Below the pieces are notes generated by a model. It was not told the origin of the DNA and did no database searches. It was given only the letters and a program-made list of their open reading frames with translations. Shown one piece after another: positions 12,151 to 23,020 of a stretch of DNA of 38,465 bases. Origin of the DNA: Sediminibacterium ginsengisoli. GTDB taxonomy: Bacteria > Bacteroidota > Bacteroidia > Chitinophagales > Chitinophagaceae. Where the stretch lies: assembly GCA_945860335.1 (NCBI GenBank), contig CAMAQW010000001.1:1-38465 (forward strand), written 5' to 3'. The translations under genes were made by a program, and so were the position numbers. The stretch's first letter is position 1. Each line of letters begins with the position of its first letter.

Positions 12151-12183
12151 AGGCGGGCGCTACATTGTAGCGCCCGCTTTTTT
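12151..12183. terminator. Intrinsic terminator between convergent susD and GH92 genes
   Basis: Perfect 11-bp stem GCGGGCGCTAC-ATT-GTAGCGCCCGC followed by a T run on the + strand. Confidence 0.85.
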
Positions 12184-14335
12184 ATTCAATCATATAGGTA
12201 AGCGAGCCTCCGTTCATGAGTTTATGATGCTCGATATAATGTTGGTCTAATTTTTTTCCATTCCAAAGTACAGATCTGATGTAAGCGTTTTTGTTGTCTC
12301 CTTTTTGTATTACGTTAATTGTCAACTTTTTATTTCCAGCAAGATTAATACTTGCATTTTTTACGAGCGGAAAGCCAAAAACATATTCTCCAGATGCAGG
12401 ATTCATGGGGTATAGGCCAAGTGAACTAAAAATATACCAGGCGCTCATTTGTCCGCAATCATCATTTCCAATTAATCCATCAGGTCCTGTTTTATAAAAG
12501 CTATCTGCAACCGCTTTTATCCATTTGGCTGCTTTATCGGGATAGCCTAGTGCACTATACATGTATATAATATGATGACTTGGTTCATTGCCATGCGCAT
12601 ATTGTCCAATTAAACCAGAAACGTCTGCAGAAGCATTTTCTCCGTGCAAAATGGATGGTGCATTAAATAAAGAGTCTAATTTATTTGCTAATACTTTTTT
12701 ACCACCATATAGTGCTGATAATCCTTCAACATCATGCGGAACAAAAAAACTATGTTGCCATGCCGTTCCTTCAATATATTGTCCTTCAAACCCATGTTCC
12801 GAAAGTAAGGGGTCAAAAGGTTCAATAAATTTTCCTTGACTATCTTTTGCACGCATGAATCCTGTTGATGCATCAAATAAATTTTGGTAATACTTTGCAC
12901 GCTCCATAAATAGTGCATAGTCTTTTGTTTTACCTAATTTTTTAGCTACTTGTGCAATGCACCAGTCATCATAGGCATATTCTAGGGTGATGGTTACACT
13001 CCAGCCATGTTTGTCTTGTGGCAGGTATCCATATTTTATATAATCGCCTGTACCTCTTTGTTTTTGAAACGCAGATTTTAACATGGCTTCATAAGCAGTA
13101 TCTACATTAAATCCAGGCATGTTTTTTAAAATGGCATCTGCTATAACCGGAATAGAATGATAGCCTGTCATGGTATTGGCTTCCCAGGTGCTAATATCCC
13201 ATACGGGTAGTAGTCCATTTTCTTTGTAAAACTGCAACATACTATTGATAAGATCTGGAACTAGCTTTGGTTGTGTGATTGTAAAAAGAGGATTGAGGGC
13301 TCTAAATGTATCCCACAAAGAAAAAATAGTATAACGCGGTTTTCCGCCTTCCATTTTTTGTACTTGTCCTTGTTGATTTTGGTAGGTGCCGTCTATGTCA
13401 GAATAAATTACCGGTGCTAAAGCAGTTCTGTAGAGTGCGGTGTAAAATTTAGTAGCAAAGGCTTTATTGGAAGTATTAATTTCAATTTTATTTAATTCCT
13501 TTTCCCATTTATTTTCTGCCTTTGCGGTGATTGAATTAAATGTTTGGCCACTAATTTCATTGAGTGCCAATCCTGATTTTTCAATACTAACATTACTAAT
13601 ACCGGTCTTTACGATTATCTTTTTTTGTAAAGGCTCAAATTCTAAAAGTAATTTTACCAATTTACCATGTGCCGTTTTATTTATTTCTTGTGCATCAATA
13701 AACCGGTATGATTTTATTTTAGCTGAAAATACAGATGTAAAATAAACACGTTGATTTTTTGCCCAACCGGTAGAATAGCGGTATCCGCCAATCGTTGAAT
13801 CGTTGATGATTTTAATAAAGGCATCTGTTGGTTGATCCCAATTTAATTTAAATCCCATATCGTATCTGATCCATGCCTGATTGGAAGGAAAGCTGTATTG
13901 CTGAATACCTGTTCTTTCGCTTGCCGATAATTCACAAACAATTCCGTTGTCTAGTTTAACTGAATAATAACCAGGTTTTGCACTTTCATTTTTATGGTTA
14001 AATGCATGTTTAATGACAGAGCGGTTGGCGCCAATAGAATCGGTTAGTGGTAATACTGAAATATCGCACCAGTCACCAATACCTGTACCGTTTAAGTGAG
14101 TGTGACTAAATCCAGCAATTGTTTTGCTGCTATAATGGTAGCCACTACACCAATCCCATCCCTCGTCTCCGTTGTCGGGACTGAGTTGAACCATACCAAA
14201 GGGAACTGTGGCTCCAGGATACACGTGTCCGTGTCCGCCTGTTCCTAAAAATGGGTCTACATAACGTGTTTTATTTTGCCCATTACTAATAGCAAATACT
14301 CCCAAAAAAGGGAGTAAGATCAATATTTTTTTCAT
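12182..14335 (-). CDS. GH92 family glycoside hydrolase (alpha-mannosidase-like)
   Basis: YVDPFLGTGGHGHVYPGATVPFGMVQLSPD, FSLWDTFRA, TLEYAYDD, QYAHGNEPSHH, GNDDCGQMSAWY; signal peptide. Confidence 0.95.
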   Translation of the reverse strand: MKKILILLPFLGVFAISNGQNKTRYVDPFLGTGGHGHVYPGATVPFGMVQLSPDNGDEGWDWCSGYHYSSKTIAGFSHTHLNGTGIGDWCDISVLPLTDSIGANRSVIKHAFNHKNESAKPGYYSVKLDNGIVCELSASERTGIQQYSFPSNQAWIRYDMGFKLNWDQPTDAFIKIINDSTIGGYRYSTGWAKNQRVYFTSVFSAKIKSYRFIDAQEINKTAHGKLVKLLLEFEPLQKKIIVKTGISNVSIEKSGLALNEISGQTFNSITAKAENKWEKELNKIEINTSNKAFATKFYTALYRTALAPVIYSDIDGTYQNQQGQVQKMEGGKPRYTIFSLWDTFRALNPLFTITQPKLVPDLINSMLQFYKENGLLPVWDISTWEANTMTGYHSIPVIADAILKNMPGFNVDTAYEAMLKSAFQKQRGTGDYIKYGYLPQDKHGWSVTITLEYAYDDWCIAQVAKKLGKTKDYALFMERAKYYQNLFDASTGFMRAKDSQGKFIEPFDPLLSEHGFEGQYIEGTAWQHSFFVPHDVEGLSALYGGKKVLANKLDSLFNAPSILHGENASADVSGLIGQYAHGNEPSHHIIYMYSALGYPDKAAKWIKAVADSFYKTGPDGLIGNDDCGQMSAWYIFSSLGLYPMNPASGEYVFGFPLVKNASINLAGNKKLTINVIQKGDNKNAYIRSVLWNGKKLDQHYIEHHKLMNGGSLTYMIE

Positions 14336-14338
14336 GAT

Positions 14339-15520
14339 TTATTTTATGTAGGGATAGAGTCCCTGGTACCAAGTTAATTTATCTTTTAAACCCTCATAAA
14401 AGAAAAACACTTCACCTTTAAACCCTTTGTTTCTGTTGCTCTGTATAAATTGAGACATCAAGGCATCTGACTGAACGGTGCTTCCCGATTTAACCAATAC
14501 ACCTGGATAAAAAGGAACTGCAGTATTTTTGTAATATGATTTTTGTTGGTTGATGGAGTTGTCGTAGTCGGTAATATTGTACCGATAAATTTGTGGAATA
14601 ATCGCATCCACCCATGCGCTATCTACCCAAGTTGGCCAGTCCTGTAAATATTCGGTATATCCAAAAGGATATGGACTAGGTGACATGGTAAATAAAATAG
14701 TTGGCTTAATGGCTTTAACTTCTGTTCTTAATCGTTTTAAAAAAACGTTTAGCTTGTCGGCTCTCCACTTTAACCAGCCCGCATCTGTAGGGGATGGGGG
14801 AGGATTGGCGCCACCGTTTTCTGATTTATATAAATTTACTGTATAGGCATCATATCCGCCTGTGGAAGGCATTGCAGGTAATCTGTCATCGCCTTGAACA
14901 CCATCAACATTATACTTGTTCACCACTTCTTTAAAAAGATCAACCATAAATTGTTGTACTTGCGGATGTAATCCATTGAGCCAATCGAATCCATTTTTTA
15001 CAACAAGTTGATTGTTTAAATCTTTTGCTGCCCATTCAGGTTTAGCAGCAACAATGGAGCCGCCGTTTGCAGAATAGGAGGATGAAAATCCATATTCAAA
15101 CCAAGCATGTACTTTTAATCCTGCTGCTTTACCTTCTTCAACGCATTCTTGTAATGGATCTCTACCAACAAATTTTTCCAACTGCTTAATGCCGGTTAAA
15201 TTTTGCATCACGGTGCTAGGGTAAATTGTTCTTGCATTGTTATATACAACAATAAACACATGGTTGATCCCGGCTAGTTTGCAATTGGACATCATTTGTT
15301 TAATGTTGTCTCTACTGTCTAATGCCGTACTCGCTGTTGTTGTTACCCAAACGCCACGCATGGCATTAGCGTCCCAAACTGGAACTGGATTGGGGTTTGG
15401 ATTGGGAGGAAGTGGTGTTGGCGTTGTACCGCCCTTTTTTGAACAAGCGCCAATGCTTACAAGTACAAATAAAAGAAGGCAAATGGATAGACTCTTACGA
15501 ATGTTTAGGTTGAAAAGCAT
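14339..15520 (-). CDS. GHL10 (DUF187, glycosyl hydrolase-like 10) lipoprotein
   Basis: Lipobox IGA-C, Pro-rich tether, MRGVWV, KVHAWFEYG, YNVDGVQGDD, YLQDWPTW, PQIY. Confidence 0.85.
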   Translation of the reverse strand: MLFNLNIRKSLSICLLLFVLVSIGACSKKGGTTPTPLPPNPNPNPVPVWDANAMRGVWVTTTASTALDSRDNIKQMMSNCKLAGINHVFIVVYNNARTIYPSTVMQNLTGIKQLEKFVGRDPLQECVEEGKAAGLKVHAWFEYGFSSSYSANGGSIVAAKPEWAAKDLNNQLVVKNGFDWLNGLHPQVQQFMVDLFKEVVNKYNVDGVQGDDRLPAMPSTGGYDAYTVNLYKSENGGANPPPSPTDAGWLKWRADKLNVFLKRLRTEVKAIKPTILFTMSPSPYPFGYTEYLQDWPTWVDSAWVDAIIPQIYRYNITDYDNSINQQKSYYKNTAVPFYPGVLVKSGSTVQSDALMSQFIQSNRNKGFKGEVFFFYEGLKDKLTWYQGLYPYIK

Positions 15521-15596
15521 GACAAATGTTGAAATTGATGAGCTAACTTAATTAAATATTTTATAAATTTAATATAAGTTTTTAATATTTTTAATT

Positions 15597-16874
15597 ATGC
15601 GTCAACCTACAACCCCAAAATCGCCATTATTTTGGATTCCTAGCACTTGGTTTGCTATGGGATTGCCCTTCGTTGCTTTGTCTACGGCAAGTGCAATCAT
15701 GTATAAAAATTTTGGAATATCTGACACTAGTATTGCGTTTTGGACCTCGCTCATTATGCTTCCATGGACATTAAAGCCTTTGTGGGGACCATTTTTGGAA
15801 ATGTTTAAAACAAAAAAATATTTCGTTTATATCACGCAAATTATAACAGGATCGATATTTGGATTAATCGCTATTTCACTTCATCTAGATCATTTTTTTT
15901 CAATTTCAATTACATTAATGGCAATCATAGCCATTAGTGCCTCTACGCATGATACAGCGGCAGATGGTATTTATTTGAATGAATTAGATCCTGCACAACA
16001 AGCAAAATATGTGGGTTGGCAAGGTGCATTTTATAATGTTGCTAAAATAGTTTCGGGTGGCTTACTCGTTTATTTAGCAGGAGAATTGGAAAAGCGATAC
16101 GGGTTAATTAATGCATGGGTAACCGTTATGTCTTTTTACTGCATTATTATGGTATCGTTGGGTATTTACAATATGAAAATGCTTCCAGAGGGAGGTGTGT
16201 CAAAGCAGGTGGGTACTTTACAAGAAGGCTTTGATGTATTGAAAGATGTGATCATTACTTTTTTTCAGAAAAAAAATATTTGGTATGGGTTGGCTTTCAT
16301 TGTTTTTTACCGTTTTGCAGAAGGACAAGCAATAAAAATTACCCCTTTATTTTTTAAAGCTACAAGAGCAGAAGGTGGCCTCGGATTATCAACTTCGGAA
16401 ATTGGACTATTGTATGGTGTATTTGGAGCTGCTGCTTTTGTATTAGGATCGATTGTAGCAGGTAACTTTGTTTCTAAAAGTGGTGGGTTAACAAGAAAAT
16501 CTCTATTAATATTATGTTGTTTCTTTAATTTACCATTTGCTGCTTATGCCTACTTAGCCATTGCGCTTCCTACTAATTTATATGTTATTGGTTCGGCTGT
16601 TGCGATTGAGTATTTTGGTTATGGCTTTGGATTCGTAGGTTTGATTTTATACATTATGCAACAAATGGCCCCCGGAAAATATAAAATGGCGCACTATGCT
16701 TTTGGAAGTGGTTTAACCAATTTGGGTTTTATGTTACCTTCCATGATTAGTGGATTTGTAAGTGACAAAATAGGGTATCAATATTTCTTTATTTGGGTAC
16801 TTGTTTCTACCATTCCAGCCTTTTTAATTTCTTGGTTAGTACCCTTGCCAAATTTAAATGAAGAAAAAATATAA
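15597..16874 (+). CDS. MFS transporter, AmpG-like
   Basis: About 12 hydrophobic segments; LPWTLKPLWGP, SASTHDTAADG and KMAHYA motifs typical of the AmpG family. Confidence 0.85.
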   Translation: MRQPTTPKSPLFWIPSTWFAMGLPFVALSTASAIMYKNFGISDTSIAFWTSLIMLPWTLKPLWGPFLEMFKTKKYFVYITQIITGSIFGLIAISLHLDHFFSISITLMAIIAISASTHDTAADGIYLNELDPAQQAKYVGWQGAFYNVAKIVSGGLLVYLAGELEKRYGLINAWVTVMSFYCIIMVSLGIYNMKMLPEGGVSKQVGTLQEGFDVLKDVIITFFQKKNIWYGLAFIVFYRFAEGQAIKITPLFFKATRAEGGLGLSTSEIGLLYGVFGAAAFVLGSIVAGNFVSKSGGLTRKSLLILCCFFNLPFAAYAYLAIALPTNLYVIGSAVAIEYFGYGFGFVGLILYIMQQMAPGKYKMAHYAFGSGLTNLGFMLPSMISGFVSDKIGYQYFFIWVLVSTIPAFLISWLVPLPNLNEEKI

Positions 16875-16884
16875 ATATTAGATC

Positions 16885-17817
16885 ATGCGCATTACAGGAA
16901 CTTTCATTGACGAAATTAGTCATGACATACCGCATCAAAATTGGGGGCCACGTGAATGGGAAAAAGATTTTCAATATATGCAGGCTGCCGGTATTGATAC
17001 GGTTATTGTAATTCGCTGTGGCTATAGAAAATTTTTGACCTATCCGTCGGATTATTTAATAAGTAAGCATCAGTGTTATGCGCCTCCAATCGATTTAATT
17101 GATTTGTATTTAACCTTAGCCGAGCGTTATGGCATGAAGCTTTATTTTGGTTTGTATGATAGTGGACACTACTGGGATACTGGAAATCTTCAGTTTGAAA
17201 TTGATGCAAATTTTTATGTTATTGATGAAGTATGGAAAAAGTACGGACATCGTACCGCATTTAAAGGTTGGTATTTGAGTACCGAAATAAGTAGAAAAAC
17301 AAAGGGCGCTATCGAAGCGTTTAATAGTTTGGGTCAAATGTGCAAGCAAATTAGCGGAAACTTACCTGTATTTATTTCTCCGTGGATTGATGGTAAAAAA
17401 GCAGTGATGGCTGCATCTGGTAATTTAACAAAAGAAGATGCCGTGTCCATTCTTGAACATGAAACAGAGTGGAATGAAATTTTTGAAGGTATTCATCAAA
17501 ACATTGATGCTGTTGCCTTTCAGGACGGTCATATTGATTATCACGAACTTCATGATTTCTTTTCAGTGAATAAAAAATTAGCTTCTAAATATAATTTAGC
17601 TTGTTGGACCAATGCCGAAAGTTTTGACCGGGATATGCCCATCAAATTTTTACCCATCAAATTTGAAAAATTAAAATTAAAATTAGAAGCTGCTGGCAAA
17701 TCTGAATATGATAAGGCTATTACTTTTGAATTTTCTCATTTTATGAGTCCTCAGTCGTCATATATACAGGCACATCATTTATACAACAGGTATTTAGAAT
17801 ACATAAACACGATATAG
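16885..17817 (+). CDS. DUF4434-like putative glycoside hydrolase, no signal peptide
   Basis: ITGTFIDEISHDIPHQNWG, GIDTVIVIR, FKGWYLSTE, AFQDG, WTNAESFDRD, ITFEFSHFMSP pattern. Family assignment from recall. Confidence 0.75.
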   Translation: MRITGTFIDEISHDIPHQNWGPREWEKDFQYMQAAGIDTVIVIRCGYRKFLTYPSDYLISKHQCYAPPIDLIDLYLTLAERYGMKLYFGLYDSGHYWDTGNLQFEIDANFYVIDEVWKKYGHRTAFKGWYLSTEISRKTKGAIEAFNSLGQMCKQISGNLPVFISPWIDGKKAVMAASGNLTKEDAVSILEHETEWNEIFEGIHQNIDAVAFQDGHIDYHELHDFFSVNKKLASKYNLACWTNAESFDRDMPIKFLPIKFEKLKLKLEAAGKSEYDKAITFEFSHFMSPQSSYIQAHHLYNRYLEYINTI

Positions 17818-17824
17818 AATTATT

Positions 17825-18922
17825 ATGAGGCGTACTATTTTTTTATTACTGGCAGTGTCTTTATTTCATTTTGCAATCCAAGCGCAGTCTACTTTAAATA
17901 ACAAGCTTCGTGGCACATGGATTACCAATGTGGCTAGTGATGCGATGTTAAATAAAAAAAATGTAGAAGAAGCGGTTTTAAACTGTAAGCGAAATGGCCT
18001 TACGGATATTTTTGTTGTGGTTTGGAATAATGGACTTACAACCTATCCAAGTAAAGTAGTTGAAAAATACATTGGCATAAAGCAAGATCCACGGTATAAA
18101 AAATTTGACCCTATTGCCTCTTTTGTAAGCGAAGGTCACAAGCATGGATTAAAAGTACATGCTTGGTTTGAGTTTGGATTTTCTTATGCCTATAAAGACA
18201 GTAGTTTAAATAATTGGCTATCAAAATACCCCAATTGGGTTGGCCGAGATCAGAAACAAAATCTTCTAAAGAAAAATGGATTTTTTTGGTGGAATAGTAT
18301 GCATCCAGAAGTACAAGACTTTATGCATCAAATGGTTTTAGAAGTTGTACAAAATTATAAAATAGATGGTGTGCAAGGGGATGATAGATTACCGGCAATG
18401 CCATCCGAAGGTGGATATGATTCATATACCGCTAAGGTGTTTGCAGATGAACACAATGGTGTAAACCCACCCGTGGATGCAAAAAATCCTTTGTGGCTGC
18501 AATGGAGAGCTAATAAATTAAATGACTTTGCAAAAAAATTATACGCATCAGTAAAAAAAACAAATGCCTCCTGTATGGTGAGTTGGGCACCAAGTATTTT
18601 TCCTTGGAGCCTTGAACAATATTTACAAGACTGGCCAACTTGGTTAAAAGATGGATATGCAGATCTTATTATTCCGCAGGTATACCGGTATCAATATGAC
18701 AATTATGCGGCTACTTTAAAAGCGGTAGCAAAACAGGTGCCTGCTTCTTTAAAAAATAAAATTTATCCTGGTATTTTAACTTCTTTAGGAGATGGGTACC
18801 GAGTAGATAGTACCTTTTTTGAAAAAATGATTGCATTAAATAGGCAAGAAGGGTATCATGGAGAAGTGTTGTTTTATTATGAAACAATTAAAGACGCAAA
18901 AAAGAGTATCTATAAAAATTAA
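17825..18922 (+). CDS. GHL10 (DUF187) glycosyl hydrolase-like protein, Sec-exported paralog
   Basis: Signal peptide IQA-Q; LRGTWI, KVHAWFEFG, DGVQGDDRLPAMPS, YLQDWPTW shared with 14339-15520. Confidence 0.85.
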   Translation: MRRTIFLLLAVSLFHFAIQAQSTLNNKLRGTWITNVASDAMLNKKNVEEAVLNCKRNGLTDIFVVVWNNGLTTYPSKVVEKYIGIKQDPRYKKFDPIASFVSEGHKHGLKVHAWFEFGFSYAYKDSSLNNWLSKYPNWVGRDQKQNLLKKNGFFWWNSMHPEVQDFMHQMVLEVVQNYKIDGVQGDDRLPAMPSEGGYDSYTAKVFADEHNGVNPPVDAKNPLWLQWRANKLNDFAKKLYASVKKTNASCMVSWAPSIFPWSLEQYLQDWPTWLKDGYADLIIPQVYRYQYDNYAATLKAVAKQVPASLKNKIYPGILTSLGDGYRVDSTFFEKMIALNRQEGYHGEVLFYYETIKDAKKSIYKN

Positions 18923-18927
18923 ATAGA

Positions 18928-19959
18928 ATGAAATCTCAATTATTCAGAAATAATATCATTTTATTTCTTTTTATTATTTTAATTGGTTGTTCTAAAAGTT
19001 CAACCGGTGGAGGAACAACGCCTCCACCACCAACTCCGCCTGTTACTTCTACAACAGCAAAGTTAATGACCTTGCCCCCGGGCTGGAAATTTTCTAGTAC
19101 TATTTCACTTAATTTTCCTAGCGGTATTGAGCTCTATTTTTTTGATAGTATTTATGCTGGAAAAAAAACAAAAATGTTTTGCTTGGCTTACGATAGTAAA
19201 AATACCAGCATAGAATTTAAGCCAGTATTAGCTGCAACTGCAAAAAAAACGAGTGACTTTTATAAGGATGAAGTGGGTACTGTTTATGCGGCACTCAACG
19301 GTGGTTTTTTTGGATCCAATCAATCTTACAGTTTAGTCAAATACAATGGAACTGTAAGCTCAGCAAATATTAAAGTATTGAGCAGAACATTTAATGGGGT
19401 GAGTACTTCTTATTATCCTACTCGCGCTGCTTTTGGCGTTACTTCAACGGGTATTTACCAGTCTGCATGGATTTATCATGTAGGTGCTGGTAATGATTTA
19501 ATATATTCTTATCCATCTCCTAGTCCTAATGTAGAAGGAAAAGCACCCATGGCATTGCCTACTGAGCTTTTTCCAACGGGAGGCAAAGTGTGGGATATTC
19601 ATTCTGCAATTGGGGGATCGCCTCAATTATTAAAAGATGGCAAACTTTCTATTTCTGATACTGCCGAAATGATTGTGATAAACAATAAAACATCTAGGCC
19701 TAGGTCGGCTATTGGATTTACAAATAACAATTTGGTTTTGTTATTGGCTGTTGAAGGGGATAATACGGTTGGTGGGTATGACGGCGTTAATCTTTTAGAT
19801 CTGAGTAATATTATGGCCTCATTGGGTTGTCAAGATGCCATCAATTTAGATGGAGGTGGTTCTACAAGCATGGTGGTATCTAGTCAACAGCTTGTTCGCC
19901 CTGGAGACAATGGTATTGAAAGGCCAGTTGTATCTGCTGTTTTAATTAAAAAGAAATAG
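18928..19959 (+). CDS. Phosphodiester glycosidase (NAGPA-like) lipoprotein
   Basis: Lipobox LIG-C, Pro/Thr tether, ALNGGFF, PRSAIG, AINLDGGGSTSM, RPVVSA motifs. Confidence 0.88.
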   Translation: MKSQLFRNNIILFLFIILIGCSKSSTGGGTTPPPPTPPVTSTTAKLMTLPPGWKFSSTISLNFPSGIELYFFDSIYAGKKTKMFCLAYDSKNTSIEFKPVLAATAKKTSDFYKDEVGTVYAALNGGFFGSNQSYSLVKYNGTVSSANIKVLSRTFNGVSTSYYPTRAAFGVTSTGIYQSAWIYHVGAGNDLIYSYPSPSPNVEGKAPMALPTELFPTGGKVWDIHSAIGGSPQLLKDGKLSISDTAEMIVINNKTSRPRSAIGFTNNNLVLLLAVEGDNTVGGYDGVNLLDLSNIMASLGCQDAINLDGGGSTSMVVSSQQLVRPGDNGIERPVVSAVLIKKK

Positions 19960-19983
19960 CATTCATACGCATGTATAATTAAT

Positions 19984-20019
19984 AAAAAAAGCCGCTCCTT
20001 ATGGAAGCGGCTTTTTTTT
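19984..20019. terminator. Bidirectional intrinsic terminator (PUL end and tRNA-like RNA end)
   Basis: A7-GCCGCTCC-TTAT-GGAAGCGGC-T8; U tails on both strands. Confidence 0.88.
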
Positions 20020-20020
20020 G

Positions 20021-20184
20021 CTGTAGGGGGAGGGATCGAACCTCCAGAAGGCAGTTAGCTATAACACAAAGTTCAGTGGTCGACCCTGGTCGCTTATTGC
20101 TAAGCGGCTCTATGTTACGTTTATCCCGTTATCCTCACCCTCGAGACAAGAGGGCATGTTTGCCTAATATTTCATCACCCCACA
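20021..20184 (-). ncRNA. tRNA-like RNA (anticodon GUC/Asp) with 92-nt structured variable-arm insertion
   Basis: Minus strand: acceptor TGTGGGG/CCCTACA plus G73; T8 G9; D arm ATG-AAATATTAGGCAAA-CAT; anticodon arm CCCTC-TTGTCTC-GAGGG; insertion 20137-20046; T arm GGAGG-TTCGATC-CCTCC. CCA not encoded. Confidence 0.85.
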
Positions 20185-20219
20185 ATAAATAAGAACTGTT
20201 TTGATACTCATTAACAATG

Positions 20220-20252
20220 CAATGTTAAACCATTAGGCCTATTCGTTACAAA
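20220..20252 (-). promoter_or_regulatory. Candidate Bacteroidota housekeeping promoter for the tRNA-like RNA
   Basis: Minus strand TTTG (20252-20249), 21-nt spacer, TAACATTG (20227-20220; one mismatch to TAnnTTTG). Confidence 0.55.
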
Positions 20253-20335
20253 TATTTTAATCAATAATCAAAAACTTTAGAAAAATATCAATAAATTGCT
20301 TTTTTATTAAAATACTACTAAAAACACGCCCTAAT

Positions 20336-20812
20336 ATGAACCCAAAATTGAATCTTGACAAACTCGATTTACAGATTATTCAGGAAATGATGGAGGATGC
20401 TGAAATTTCCTACGCCGATTTAGGTAAAAAACTCTTTGTGTCGGGTGGTACCATCCACGTGCGTATAAAAAAATTAGAAGAACTGGGTGTAGTAAAGGGT
20501 AAAAAATTATCTGTCGATTTAAAAGAACTCGGTTACGACGTAATTGCTTTTATTGGCATCTATCTCGAAAAAAGTTCGCTGTATGATAGTGTTGCCAAGG
20601 AATTAAAAAAAGTACCACAAATTGTGCGTTTAAATTATACCACCGGTAATTATAGCATGTTTGCAGAAATTGTTTGTAAAGATATTCAGCAGTTGCGTTA
20701 TGTTTTACATGATGAGCTGCAAAAAATAAAAGGTATTGAAAGAACAGAAACATTTATTTCACTCGAAGAAAGTTTGGTGCGCAGTGTAGTGGTTTCTCCA
20801 ACTTCGGAATAG
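20336..20812 (+). CDS. asnC: Lrp/AsnC family transcriptional regulator, AsnC-like
   Basis: LDKLDLQII, SYADLGKKLFVSGGTIHVRIKKLEELGVV HTH, YTTGNYSMF, LQKIKGIERTETFISLE closely resemble E. coli AsnC motifs. Confidence 0.85.
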   Translation: MNPKLNLDKLDLQIIQEMMEDAEISYADLGKKLFVSGGTIHVRIKKLEELGVVKGKKLSVDLKELGYDVIAFIGIYLEKSSLYDSVAKELKKVPQIVRLNYTTGNYSMFAEIVCKDIQQLRYVLHDELQKIKGIERTETFISLEESLVRSVVVSPTSE

Positions 20813-23020
20813 TTATTTTTCACGCACATTAAAAGCGTCTCTTAATCCGTTTCCAAGTAAATTAAATGCAAGCACTAGTATCATAATGGCAATGCCAGGT
20901 GCTAGTGCAAGTGCCGGATTGTGGGTGATAATAAAATTATAATTTTCTTTAATCATCAGGCCCCAGCTGGGTTGTGGCGGTTGAACACCCACGCCTAAAA
21001 AACTTAAGCCTGCTTCAATTACAATCGCAGATGCAAAATTACTCGCAGCAATTACGAGTACGGGTCCAATAATATTGGGTAAAATATGTAAAAATATGGT
21101 GCGTGTATTGGAGTAGCCAAGTACCTGTGCCGCTTCAATAAATTCTCTGTTTTTAATGGCCATTACCTGACCGCGCACAAGCCTTGCAACATTCACCCAC
21201 ATGGTTAATCCAACTGCAATAAACACTTGCCAAAATCCTTTTCCTAAAACAAGTGTAATTGCAAACACTAGCAGTAATGTTGGAATACTCCAAATAACAT
21301 TGATAAACCACATAATGCATTCATCTATCCAGCCTCTATAAAAACCGGCTAATGCACCCAGTAAAATGCCAATAGTGAGTGATAGTAAAACAGCAATCAT
21401 GCCAACACCAAGGCTTACTCTTACGCCAATAATGAGGCGGCTTAACATGTCCCTGCCAAACTTATCGGTACCTGCGTAATAGGTTTGTTTAATAACTGGT
21501 TCTTTGGCAGCTAAGCTTAGTGGCATTACACCAGCTTCTGTAATGCCTTCATCAATATATTTCTGGTAATAAATAGAATCACCTTTTATGTGGTAAGAGG
21601 TGATTGGAATAAAGGTATTCGCGTCCTCTTTGCCATTTAATAGCCTATCAAAAAATGAAGCATTTGTTGTTTGTCCTATTCGTTTTACTTGAAGTAATTG
21701 AATCGTAAATCCAGGCTTCATGCTTCCTATTTCAGGAATCATGCGGTTGGCGTTTGGCGAATGTTCGGGTGCTATAAAATAAGCAAACACCGCCATCAAA
21801 AAAGCAGCGGTAATAATATAAAGTGATACACTTGCAGGTTTATTTCGTTTTAATTTTGTAAAAAAACGATCTGGTTCATTTTTAGTTACGGTGCGACCTT
21901 TCCATTTGTAAGATCCAAATGTGCCAAACCAACCAGCCACCACCGTATATAAAATATGAAATGGTTGCATGAATAAAAACCACCAGAGTAACTTTTGTTG
22001 TTTAAAAAATTTGGCAGCTGCATACATAAATGGAAGTTCAACAAGTGTTTTACAACCTATAAAAACAAACCAGTTATTGATATTACCAGTTTCTATTAGG
22101 TTAACGGGGAGGTACACCAATAACGAAAAATTTACCAGGTACACCAGCAGTAATATCCAAAAAATAATTTTGTCTTGATAGCCAAGCGCCTTACTAGACC
22201 AGCGTATCCGCTGTTGTATAAATAAATCTAACGTCGCACTTGGGGCCGTTGTAACCACTGTATCCTGCGCGTATAAGTATCCAATTTTTTCTGGATACGA
22301 TTTTTTCATTTTATGCATCAGTAGCATATCGTCGCCACTGGGTAAATGATCAATGCCACTAAATTTTCCAACGCTTTCAAAGGCTTCTTTACTATAACAC
22401 AAATTAGCGCCGTTGCAGAGTGTGTGTGAACCAGAGCCAACAGCTGCTGCCGTAATACCTTGTAAACTAATAAAATCTAAAACCTGAAAAACCGATAAAA
22501 AGCTTCCGGTATTTTTATAGCTTACTGGCGCCGCAATCATTACGCAGTTATGCTCCTGAATATATGCATCATAACTAGCCAGCCAATTATTGGTAAAACT
22601 GCAATCAGCGTCGGTGGTAACAATCCATGGATGATTTGCCTGTTCAATGGCAATTTCTATGGCTCTTTTTTTATACGCTACTATATTTTCATCTTTTGTA
22701 AAATCTTGCAGGCGCAGTAATCTTACATTGTTATATTGTAAAGCGATTGATCCAACAATGTTTGCGGTTTCATCTTCCGAAAAATCATCTATTACAATCA
22801 ATTCAAATAAATGAGAAGGGTAGTTTTGCGCCAAAATACCCGCTATGCAGTTTTCAATGTTAGCCGCTTCATTGCGGGCCGGAATGACAATCGAAAACTT
22901 AGTTTGAGGTGTTTTGCCCTTAGCCACAAATGCGCGCAGGTTCCAGTGCCCCCTTGTATACAAGGCCATTAATACGCCGTAGGCGGCCAATAAGCAAATG
23001 GTTACCGTAAAAAGGTACAT
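20813..23020 (-). CDS. Fusion: GT2 glycosyltransferase (N-terminal) plus OppC/DppC-type ABC permease (C-terminal)
   Basis: SIVIPARNE, IDDFSED, TTDADC, SGDD, QRIRW and WKGR (GT2); then KRNK, GTDKFGRD, EFIEAAQVLG, HILPN, LSFLGVGVQPPQPSWG, LLGNGLRDAF (OppC). Confidence 0.85.
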   Translation of the reverse strand: MYLFTVTICLLAAYGVLMALYTRGHWNLRAFVAKGKTPQTKFSIVIPARNEAANIENCIAGILAQNYPSHLFELIVIDDFSEDETANIVGSIALQYNNVRLLRLQDFTKDENIVAYKKRAIEIAIEQANHPWIVTTDADCSFTNNWLASYDAYIQEHNCVMIAAPVSYKNTGSFLSVFQVLDFISLQGITAAAVGSGSHTLCNGANLCYSKEAFESVGKFSGIDHLPSGDDMLLMHKMKKSYPEKIGYLYAQDTVVTTAPSATLDLFIQQRIRWSSKALGYQDKIIFWILLLVYLVNFSLLVYLPVNLIETGNINNWFVFIGCKTLVELPFMYAAAKFFKQQKLLWWFLFMQPFHILYTVVAGWFGTFGSYKWKGRTVTKNEPDRFFTKLKRNKPASVSLYIITAAFLMAVFAYFIAPEHSPNANRMIPEIGSMKPGFTIQLLQVKRIGQTTNASFFDRLLNGKEDANTFIPITSYHIKGDSIYYQKYIDEGITEAGVMPLSLAAKEPVIKQTYYAGTDKFGRDMLSRLIIGVRVSLGVGMIAVLLSLTIGILLGALAGFYRGWIDECIMWFINVIWSIPTLLLVFAITLVLGKGFWQVFIAVGLTMWVNVARLVRGQVMAIKNREFIEAAQVLGYSNTRTIFLHILPNIIGPVLVIAASNFASAIVIEAGLSFLGVGVQPPQPSWGLMIKENYNFIITHNPALALAPGIAIMILVLAFNLLGNGLRDAFNVREK

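Follow-up and report, generated by a model that had tools for sequence, protein, structure and literature searches.

A giant-armed tRNA-like RNA encoded head-to-head with an asnC-like gene in Sediminibacterium: a possible off-ribosome carrier for asparagine synthesis in Bacteroidota

We analysed a 38,465-nt stretch of the genome of Sediminibacterium ginsengisoli (Bacteroidota, Chitinophagaceae; assembly GCA_945860335.1, contig CAMAQW010000001.1, positions 1 to 38,465), hereafter called the window. Its reverse strand carries, at positions 20184-20021, a gene for a 164-nt tRNA-like RNA, which extends from U1 (20184) to G73 (20021). The RNA adopts a cloverleaf whose acceptor stem has 7 bp and whose D stem has 3; the anticodon and T stems have 5 bp each, and the T loop is normal. 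The anticodon loop reads U32 U33 G34 U35 C36 U37 C38, with the anticodon GUC at 20147-20145, and G73 is followed in the genome by CAA instead of CCA. An open reading frame (ORF) encoding an AsnC-like regulator starts at 20336 on the forward strand, so that the two divergent genes lie head-to-head across 151 bp. The original prediction had described this arrangement together with the U1-A72 pair, the GUC anticodon and G73 of the RNA, and inspection of the sequence confirmed all of them.

The variable domain starts with a 4-bp base stem, a bulge and a second stem of 3 bp. These lead to a conserved internal loop rich in A (formed by 20125-20120 and 20058-20055), a long stem and a three-way junction with the hairpins 20106-20091 and 20088-20074. 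Comparison of 55 distinct copies of the RNA revealed that the base of this domain is fixed and its distal part free: A61, A129 and A130 of the A-rich loop are present in 55/55 copies, and the domain varies in length from about 40 to 157 nt (the whole RNA from 106 to 212 nt). The loop resembles what we take to be a UAA/GAN motif, a name for which a literature search gave no paper. The core is similar to that of tRNA-Leu, with A15:U48 in 55/55 copies, C20-A20a in 54/55, and G18 G19.

Covariation was assessed in an alignment of 25 homologues (27 sequences, minus two near-copies). In this alignment 97.4% of the cells pair and both sides change in 22 of the 47 pairs, compared with a mean of 9.2 pairs in shuffled alignments and 4-10 pairs when the partners were slid by 1-3 columns. 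The corresponding value for the 55 model-fitted copies is 37/47, in an alignment of a kind that leans towards the model. The fold of the sequence taken alone is weak (z -1.68), and the minimum free energy structure, which misplaces the D and anticodon arms, was rejected. It is the covariation among homologues that establishes the cloverleaf as more than a product of chance. ARAGORN reported no tRNA in the window, nor in 11 of 11 homologous loci, and neither the window nor any of 8 homologous loci reached the gathering score of an Rfam family; the Rfam matches at E up to 10 were terminator-type chance matches only. Even under the explanations that rival the one favoured below, this is a widespread structured RNA missed by both programs, with a new domain in the position of the variable arm.

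An explanation to which we give the least credence of all those considered is that no functional RNA is encoded here, and that the sequence is the remnant of a tRNA-Leu, a scar left by integration or merely the opposite strand of a 63-aa ORF (20001-20192). Degenerate copies of the RNA do exist (genome G096) and in the window an open frame runs antisense to it; this frame is uninterrupted, however, in only 30 of the 55 copies, the RNA gene has promoter-like and terminator elements of its own, and the covariation, seen across 13 families and phages, largely refutes this explanation.

Part of the region 19900-20850 was found in twenty freshwater metatranscriptome studies, and contigs covering part of the RNA are present in 8 of 8 runs examined. 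Contigs of X7, X9 and X12 are identical to the RNA over 128-145 nt, and in four studies the contigs stop at 20174 with adapter sequence. One contig of X3 ends with G73-C74 and one more C before the adapter, which may hint at the addition of CCA but could equally come from relatives in which CCA is encoded, as it is in two that are 3-4 changes away. No change of C36 was found in the RNA contigs at 3%. Because all of the library data are contigs, strand, level and ends are not readable from them; the contig depth, far higher on the RNA than on asnC, and the uncovered spacer (20205-20298) were not used, since contigs show neither level nor absence.

The positions that determine recognition by tRNA-binding proteins were examined in the 55 distinct copies. 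U1-A72, G2-C71, G73, U35, C36, C38 and C74 are present in all of them, as is the T-stem pair G49-C65; G34 is found in 53, A51-U63 in 54, U3-A70 in 53 and G10 in 6. Base 37 is U in 48 copies, G in 5 and C in 2, and never A; base 33 is not invariant either (U 45, G 6, C 4). The anticodon was tested with search patterns in which any base was allowed at the seven loop positions; these matched at least 120 metagenomic and at least 120 viral loci. Among the matches listed, a full cloverleaf is formed in 94 metagenomic and 93 viral loci, which gave 96 and 68 distinct sequences, respectively. The anticodon is GUC in 96/96 and 68/68 of these, U1-A72 is present in 96/96 and 65/68 (three viral copies have A1-U72), and G73 in all. 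The three marks named in the original prediction are conserved.

The five strong determinants of Asp identity are G73, G34, U35, C36 and C38 (PMC9976931). The determinant of bacterial GatCAB is U1-A72; the anticodon is irrelevant to this enzyme, and tRNA-Asn(C36) is amidated like the wild type (PMC1635274). Binding of Asp-tRNA(Asn) by EF-Tu is prevented by the pairs G49-C65 and A51-U63 (PMC1904265). The RNA has all five strong AspRS marks, the GatCAB mark and both T-stem pairs directed against EF-Tu; the host tRNA-Asp has G1-C72, G49-U65 and G51-C63.

Some of the same features could point to a serine-charged or miscoding tRNA, comparable to the GUC allo-tRNAs, or to a true decoder of Asp codons: G73, G2-C71 and the long arm are elements of Ser identity (PMC9976931), and GUC is common among allo-tRNA anticodons (PMC5389517). 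We consider this highly improbable. Although the anticodon plays no part in recognition by SerRS, G34-C36 and C38 hardly vary in the RNA, which has U1-A72 and not G1-C72, U37, a variable base 33 and 7/5 geometry, and the genome encodes a normal tRNA-Asp.

What is shown directly is that the gene exists, how its product folds, which identity marks it bears, that RNA libraries contain it and how it is distributed. As somewhat probable we favour a reading in which the RNA is a dedicated, reusable non-ribosomal carrier for asparagine synthesis. The following steps are envisaged: (i) the RNA would be transcribed from its own gene beside the AsnC-like regulator, trimmed at its 5′ end and provided with CCA, (ii) AspRS would charge it with Asp through G34, U35, C36, C38 and G73, (iii) the weak T-stem pairs G49-C65 and A51-U63 would keep the Asp-RNA off EF-Tu, (iv) GatCAB would amidate the Asp-RNA to Asn-RNA via U1-A72, (v) U37, the variable base 33 and the giant arm would exclude the Asn form from reading Asp codons, (vi) free Asn may be released by hydrolysis or by an enzyme, with recycling of Asn by AsnRS, and (vii) AsnC would control the RNA gene. 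Given the GUC anticodon, even a discriminating AspRS could load the RNA, which would then do the job performed elsewhere by a non-discriminating AspRS or an asparagine synthetase.

The distribution of the RNA was determined with blastn and with one covariance model (R1), whose true matches score at least 84 bits and are at least 106 nt long; ordinary tRNAs reach at most 60 bits (the next-best matches being 82-87-nt tRNAs at no more than 55 bits), and more distant members may be missed. By blastn, the RNA is present in 26 of 40 relatives, and in 21/24 within the genus; a copy cut by a contig end in G005 was first called negative. A deeper search (150 candidates) in 10 RNA-negative genomes with GatB or AsnC returned ordinary tRNAs only, and no RNA was detected around 17 asnC genes scanned without a filter. 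In the phylum sample, the 38 genomes of the same class comprise 15 with RNA and GatB, 1 with GatB only and 22 with neither; the 113 genomes of other classes include 110 with GatB and 1 with the RNA. This single carrier (G160, L044:1501-1642) has the RNA beside asnC, with C37 and C3-G70, and possibly acquired it by transfer.

The class sample (151 genomes including that of the window, G000) overlaps the phylum sample and counts the unpublished genome G262 as one RNA-negative row. It contains 27 carriers of the RNA from 13 families. GatB is encoded by 27/27 carriers, compared with 112/151 genomes overall, and the RNA is present in 0/39 GatB-less genomes (Fisher p 1.7e-4, kin not being independent). 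AsnRS is likewise present in 27/27 carriers; its apparent lack in three of them was an artefact of the E-value limit, and all three, together with two controls, passed when split matches were joined (the other 24 negatives of the first AsnRS search were not rechecked and not used). In two genomes the AsnRS match falls within an unusually long ORF of about 640 aa, which may contain an insertion or a fusion (G198:C1:26888-27775, G307:C7:55639-56463). AsnA or E. coli-type AsnB was found in 0/27 carriers compared with 22/124 other genomes (p 0.014), an anti-correlation that is weak because lack of the synthetase is common; model TIGR01536 was dropped as a test for AsnB, as several amidotransferases matched it per genome. 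These counts bear out the co-occurrence with gatCAB and asnS and the anti-correlation with asnA/asnB that the original prediction had anticipated. No archaeal-type AspRS scored over the cut-off in the 151 genomes.

The genome of the window (76% complete) encodes GatB, GatA, AspRS, AsnRS, GlnRS, an ordinary tRNA-Asp and a separate tmRNA, and gave no match to AsnA or AsnB; GatA is present in 5 of 5 carriers checked. Close relatives without the RNA lack GatB (G224, which has AsnB; G056, G285, G265 and G317; G167, which has AsnA; G072, G119 and G004), and a synthetase is often present in such relatives. The RNA/GatB contrast recurs within five families and the window's genus (G004, G072, G119, G167, G056, G285, G224, G193, G265, G317), and in two of these contrasts the loss of GatB coincides with a gain of GlnRS.

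The sharpest contrast is given by the 58 genomes with GlnRS, because GatCAB is not needed there for the formation of Gln-tRNA. Fifteen of them have both RNA and GatB, none has the RNA without GatB, 5 have GatB without the RNA, and 38 have neither. Four of these 5 encode a GatB-AspRS fusion of about 1110 aa plus a normal AspRS, so that GatB is accompanied either by the RNA (15) or by a fused second AspRS (4) in 19 of the 20 GatB-positive GlnRS genomes. The fusion operon (L111:2141-7124 in G219; also in G253, G282 and G309) consists of a small GatC-sized ORF, gatA and the GatB-AspRS gene; its bearers, which belong to one family, have stand-alone AspRS, AsnRS and GlnRS and no RNA.

The fusion bears directly on the main rival explanation, in which the RNA is the tether of a transamidosome, i.e. 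a permanent scaffold that binds one AspRS subunit (by GUC) and GatCAB (by U1-A72 and the elbow), the other subunit serving ordinary tRNA-Asn. The mutual exclusion of RNA and fusion in 4/4 genomes would make the RNA the counterpart of the fusion, the co-occurrence of RNA and GatB is equally expected, and the conserved A-rich loop of the giant arm suggests a docking surface. A non-substrate scaffold tRNA has been described in the T. thermophilus complex; the same source indicates that the GAD domain of a bacterial-type AspRS may block a scaffold tRNA (PMC3367201). The pairs acting against EF-Tu, G73 and the invariant C74 (55/55) are of greatest importance to an RNA that receives the amino acid itself, and the host tRNA-Asn carries the 20a anti-determinant discussed below. 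On balance we regard a tether as unlikely.

The AsnC-like protein scores best among the NCBIfam models against AsnC (NF008384, 154.5 bits, under its cut-off of 227), and its best solved relative is E. coli AsnC (2cg4, E 4e-32; the next, 1.5e-20). The nearest relatives of the gene are found in Sediminibacterium and other Chitinophagaceae. An AsnC orthologue is present in 27/27 carriers of the RNA, compared with 6/124 other genomes, 4 of these 6 having AsnA or AsnB. The RNA lies head-to-head with asnC in 23 of the 27 carriers, a linkage that the original prediction had expected. Of 80 close loci, 75 have the RNA upstream of asnC and the remaining 5 end at a contig edge. That the RNA occupies the position of asnA, as had also been proposed, stands as an analogy only: in RNA-less genomes the close AsnC orthologues lie beside unrelated genes (6/6), never asnA or asnB. 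A more distant AsnC-like gene (42% identity; G143, L361:1837-4039), in a genome without RNA or GatB, is divergent from asnB at a distance of about 80 bp.

Besides asnC, the genes next to the RNA vary among the 30 loci listed, which argues against a role of the RNA as an aminoacyl donor, whose Asp or Asn would feed a transferase acting on lipids, the envelope, proteins or a natural product. This role would be in keeping with the weak EF-Tu pairs, known from dedicated donor tRNAs, and with a giant arm that could serve docking. It does not predict the absence of AsnA and AsnB from all carriers, and in our estimation it is improbable.

The elements flanking the two genes are included in Table 1. 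The candidate promoter of the RNA gene comprises a -33-like 4-mer (20252-20249), a 21-nt spacer and a -7-like 8-mer (20227-20220), named after what we take to be the promoter consensus; the designation of the heptamer 20191-20197 as boxA-like is likewise our assumption. Downstream of the AsnC-like gene (20813-23020, reverse strand) a 735-aa protein is encoded, an in-frame fusion of a GT2 glycosyltransferase and an OppC-type ABC permease, which is kept in L219-L221 and L223-L225 and split into separate genes in more distant relatives. On the other side of the RNA's terminator lies a glycan-use cluster (12182-19959; GH92, two GHL10, MFS transporter, DUF4434 and NAGPA); nothing points to a connection between this cluster and the RNA.

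Table 1. Features of the RNA gene, the AsnC-like gene and their flanks in the window
Feature	Position	Strand	Remarks
Likely bidirectional terminator: 15-bp hairpin flanked by T runs, shared by the RNA gene and the upstream ORF that converges on it	19984..20018	-	
Acceptor stem, 3′ strand, with A72 (20022) and discriminator G73 (20021)	20021..20028	-	
T arm with G49-C65 and A51-U63	20029..20045	-	
Giant variable domain, 92 nt	20046..20137	-	Fold and covariation
Anticodon arm with G34 U35 C36 (20147-20145), U37 and C38	20138..20154	-	
tRNA-Leu-type D arm: 3-bp stem, A14, A15, G18 G19 C20 A20a	20156..20175	-	Leu elements according to PMC9976931
Acceptor stem, 5′ strand, with U1 and G2	20178..20184	-	U1-A72 in 55/55 copies
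Conserved boxA-like heptamer just upstream of U1	20191..20197	-	
Candidate Bacteroidota-type promoter of the RNA gene	20220..20252	-	-7-like element conserved in 63 aligned spacers
AT-rich, partly conserved spacer block, candidate AsnC site	20279..20300	.	
AsnC-like regulator of the Lrp/AsnC family, 158 aa	20336..20812	+	Pfam PF01037 and PF13404

The RNA was also identified at 31 IMG/VR loci, at none of which asnC is present and several of which lie within tRNA arrays; blastn gave no match to it in GenBank phages or PLSDB plasmids. Among the matches listed, a small hairpin of the distal arm is conserved in 65/68 viral copies (L299-L329, L380-L499). Some viral copies have D-loop insertions of 10-20 nt, and L327 also holds other odd tRNA-like genes with long arms. 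Tandem duplications of the RNA are common (L042 of G096, L027, L039, L070, L071 and L082).

Phage copies without asnC, some of them in tRNA arrays, would suit a decoy or sensor. In this explanation Asn is formed on tRNA-Asn with the help of a relaxed AspRS, and the RNA, under the control of AsnC, sequesters AspRS, GatCAB or both, or else signals the balance between Asp and Asn. The tight co-occurrence with AsnC and the tolerance of U34 and A34 variants agree with this explanation, and A20a would hamper catalysis more than binding. The decoy or sensor leaves unexplained the presence of GatB in every carrier, the absence of AsnA and AsnB from all of them and the exclusion with the fusion; no output element or controlled downstream gene is present, a terminator directly following the RNA. 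We judge it slightly less likely than the tether.

Several observations weigh against the carrier for asparagine synthesis. One concerns A20a, an extra D-loop base found in 54/55 copies, which, like the tether, the original prediction had passed over. With Neisseria GatCAB, an additional base at 20A lowers amidation of tRNA-Asn 7-fold and that of tRNA-Asp(U1-A72) about 120-fold (PMC1635274). The D and variable loops, close to which the tail of GatB docks (PMC2811023), are the parts in which the RNA is most unusual. The tRNA-Asn of 5/5 carriers (6 genes; L625-L630) also has a 20a base, which is missing from four tRNA-Asn genes of another class (L050, L051, L054, L055). Either the local GatCAB accepts a 20a base, or it acts poorly on tRNA-Asn; the finding softens the objection and does not remove it. 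With regard to charging, G10 is among the determinants listed for AspRS, and in the E. coli enzyme G1-C72 assists in positioning the 3′ end (PMC9976931); the RNA has U1-A72 and, in 49 of the 55 copies, no G10. Moreover, A51-U63 is no bar to EF-Tu once Asn is attached (PMC1904265). A lone non-discriminating AspRS explains the retention of GatCAB with no need for a new RNA, and is enough in Bdellovibrio (PMC4206432).

Relaxed and strict AspRS were not distinguishable by their sequences. The fused AspRS part has His at a candidate non-discriminating site in 3/3 proteins examined. This His, which we take to be a mark of non-discriminating AspRS and for which a literature search gave no paper, is absent from 91/91 stand-alone AspRS examined; it does not separate carriers from non-carriers and was dropped as a signature. 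An AspRS tree (133 columns, quick method) required 18 changes of the RNA label, compared with 22.9 after shuffling, and is too poorly resolved (51/88 branches open) to count independent losses.

Further points against the carrier come from gene content. GatB is found without the RNA in 85 of 112 genomes, 77 of which have neither a match to AsnA/AsnB nor the fusion, and 21 of the 39 GatB-less genomes also lack such a match. G295 (210 contigs) has GatB and GlnRS without RNA or fusion. Crude looks did not find gatC in the 76%-complete genome of the window. The asnC gene is unlinked in 4/27 carriers and near the RNA in 0/31 viral loci, and no release enzyme or conserved partner gene is present at the 30 loci listed.

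Variant copies also fit poorly. The complete genome G171 (GatB and GlnRS present, no AsnA/AsnB) has only two copies, both with UUC; these are short and in tandem (L046:1501-1610 and 1723-1831), and its GatB is among the lowest-scoring. In G267, which has AsnA and GatB, a 76-nt homologue (L088:1501-1576, reverse strand) has no giant arm and carries A34; it keeps U1-A72, G73, U37 and C38, and has its own terminator-like hairpin. Degenerate, partial copies are located at a contig end in G096 (L042).

Taken together, the original interpretation is partly supported: the genomic tests were all favourable, and the mechanism itself is inferred. In its fullest form, which we hold to be about evenly balanced between right and wrong, the carrier would be a tRNA-derived coenzyme RNA with a tRNA-Leu body, an Asp anticodon, the acceptor and T-stem marks of tRNA-Asn and a 90-nt domain, on which AspRS and GatCAB would act as an off-ribosome asparagine synthetase. 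It would be switched by AsnC, replace asnA/asnB in many Bacteroidota and be carried by phages as an RNA-only auxiliary metabolic gene. As far as the cited papers go, tRNA-dependent Asn synthesis runs on tRNA-Asn itself (PMC1635274, PMC2330236, PMC4206432); here a non-coding RNA would be a dedicated carrier of amino-acid biosynthesis, uncoupled from decoding. A group of Bacteroidota with GatCAB beside AsnRS and GlnRS has been noted (PMC4206432), and the carrier would explain why GatCAB is kept beside both enzymes in many of them. Where asnA is missing, it would also be a target on which AsnC could act, and it would add an RNA-only metabolic gene to those of phages.

A search by title and opening of the abstract, which left subscription papers largely outside and did not cover supplements (Table S1 of PMC4206432, motif lists of RNA-discovery studies), found no description of such an RNA. 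Its nearest functional counterpart is the indirect Asn pathway, formed by a non-discriminating AspRS, tRNA-Asn and GatCAB (PMC1635274, PMC2330236, PMC4206432), with which it shares U1-A72, G73 and G49-C65/A51-U63, as well as hosts that have AsnRS, GlnRS and GatCAB and lack AsnA/AsnB. Unlike tRNA-Asn, it is an extra gene beside asnC, with a GUC instead of a GUU anticodon, U37, a Leu-type core and a variable domain of 40-157 nt; with GUC, U37, this core and the long arm, it cannot be a tRNA-Asn decoding AAY. The staphylococcal non-proteinogenic tRNA-Gly (PMC1904265, PMC9976931) is, as proposed here, the product of a dedicated gene for an off-ribosome tRNA with weak EF-Tu pairs; it differs in its normal size and in donating Gly to the cell wall without conversion of the amino acid. 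The allo-tRNAs and selC* tRNAs (PMC5389517), found by special searches, likewise have a long arm, G73 and often GUC, but their geometry is 8/4 or 9/3, with a tRNA-Sec-like D arm and diverse anticodons, whereas the RNA has 7/5 geometry, a Leu-like 3-bp D stem and a near-invariant GUC.

With bacterial tRNA-Asp the RNA shares G34 U35 C36 C38 G73 and G2-C71. It lacks, as a rule, a purine at position 37 and has weak EF-Tu pairs, a class II core and the giant arm; where tRNA-Asp has G1-C72, G10, G49-U65 and G51-C63, the 55 copies have U1-A72 (55), G10 (6), G49-C65 (55) and A51-U63 (54). The similarities to bacterial tRNA-Leu, a class II tRNA, include A15:U48, G18 G19, A20a, the 3-bp D stem and one unpaired base between the arm and position 48, and the differences G73 in place of A73, U1-A72, the GUC loop and an arm several times longer. 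The 7/5 acceptor-T branch, G18 G19 and the T loop are those of a canonical elongator tRNA, which, unlike the RNA (37 mostly U, 33 variable, 106-212 nt), has a purine at 37, U33 and a length of 70-95 nt. tmRNA has G3-U70, a tag reading frame and no anticodon arm; the RNA has U3-A70 in 53/55 copies and an intact anticodon arm, and a separate tmRNA is encoded in the genome. In E. coli, asnC is divergent from asnA, an arrangement in which an AsnC-like regulator likewise lies head-to-head with its partner; the partner described here is an RNA gene and not a synthetase. The RNA, in its proposed working, thus resembles the indirect Asn pathway, but it is neither a tRNA-Asn nor a tRNA-Asp, tRNA-Leu, allo-tRNA or tmRNA.

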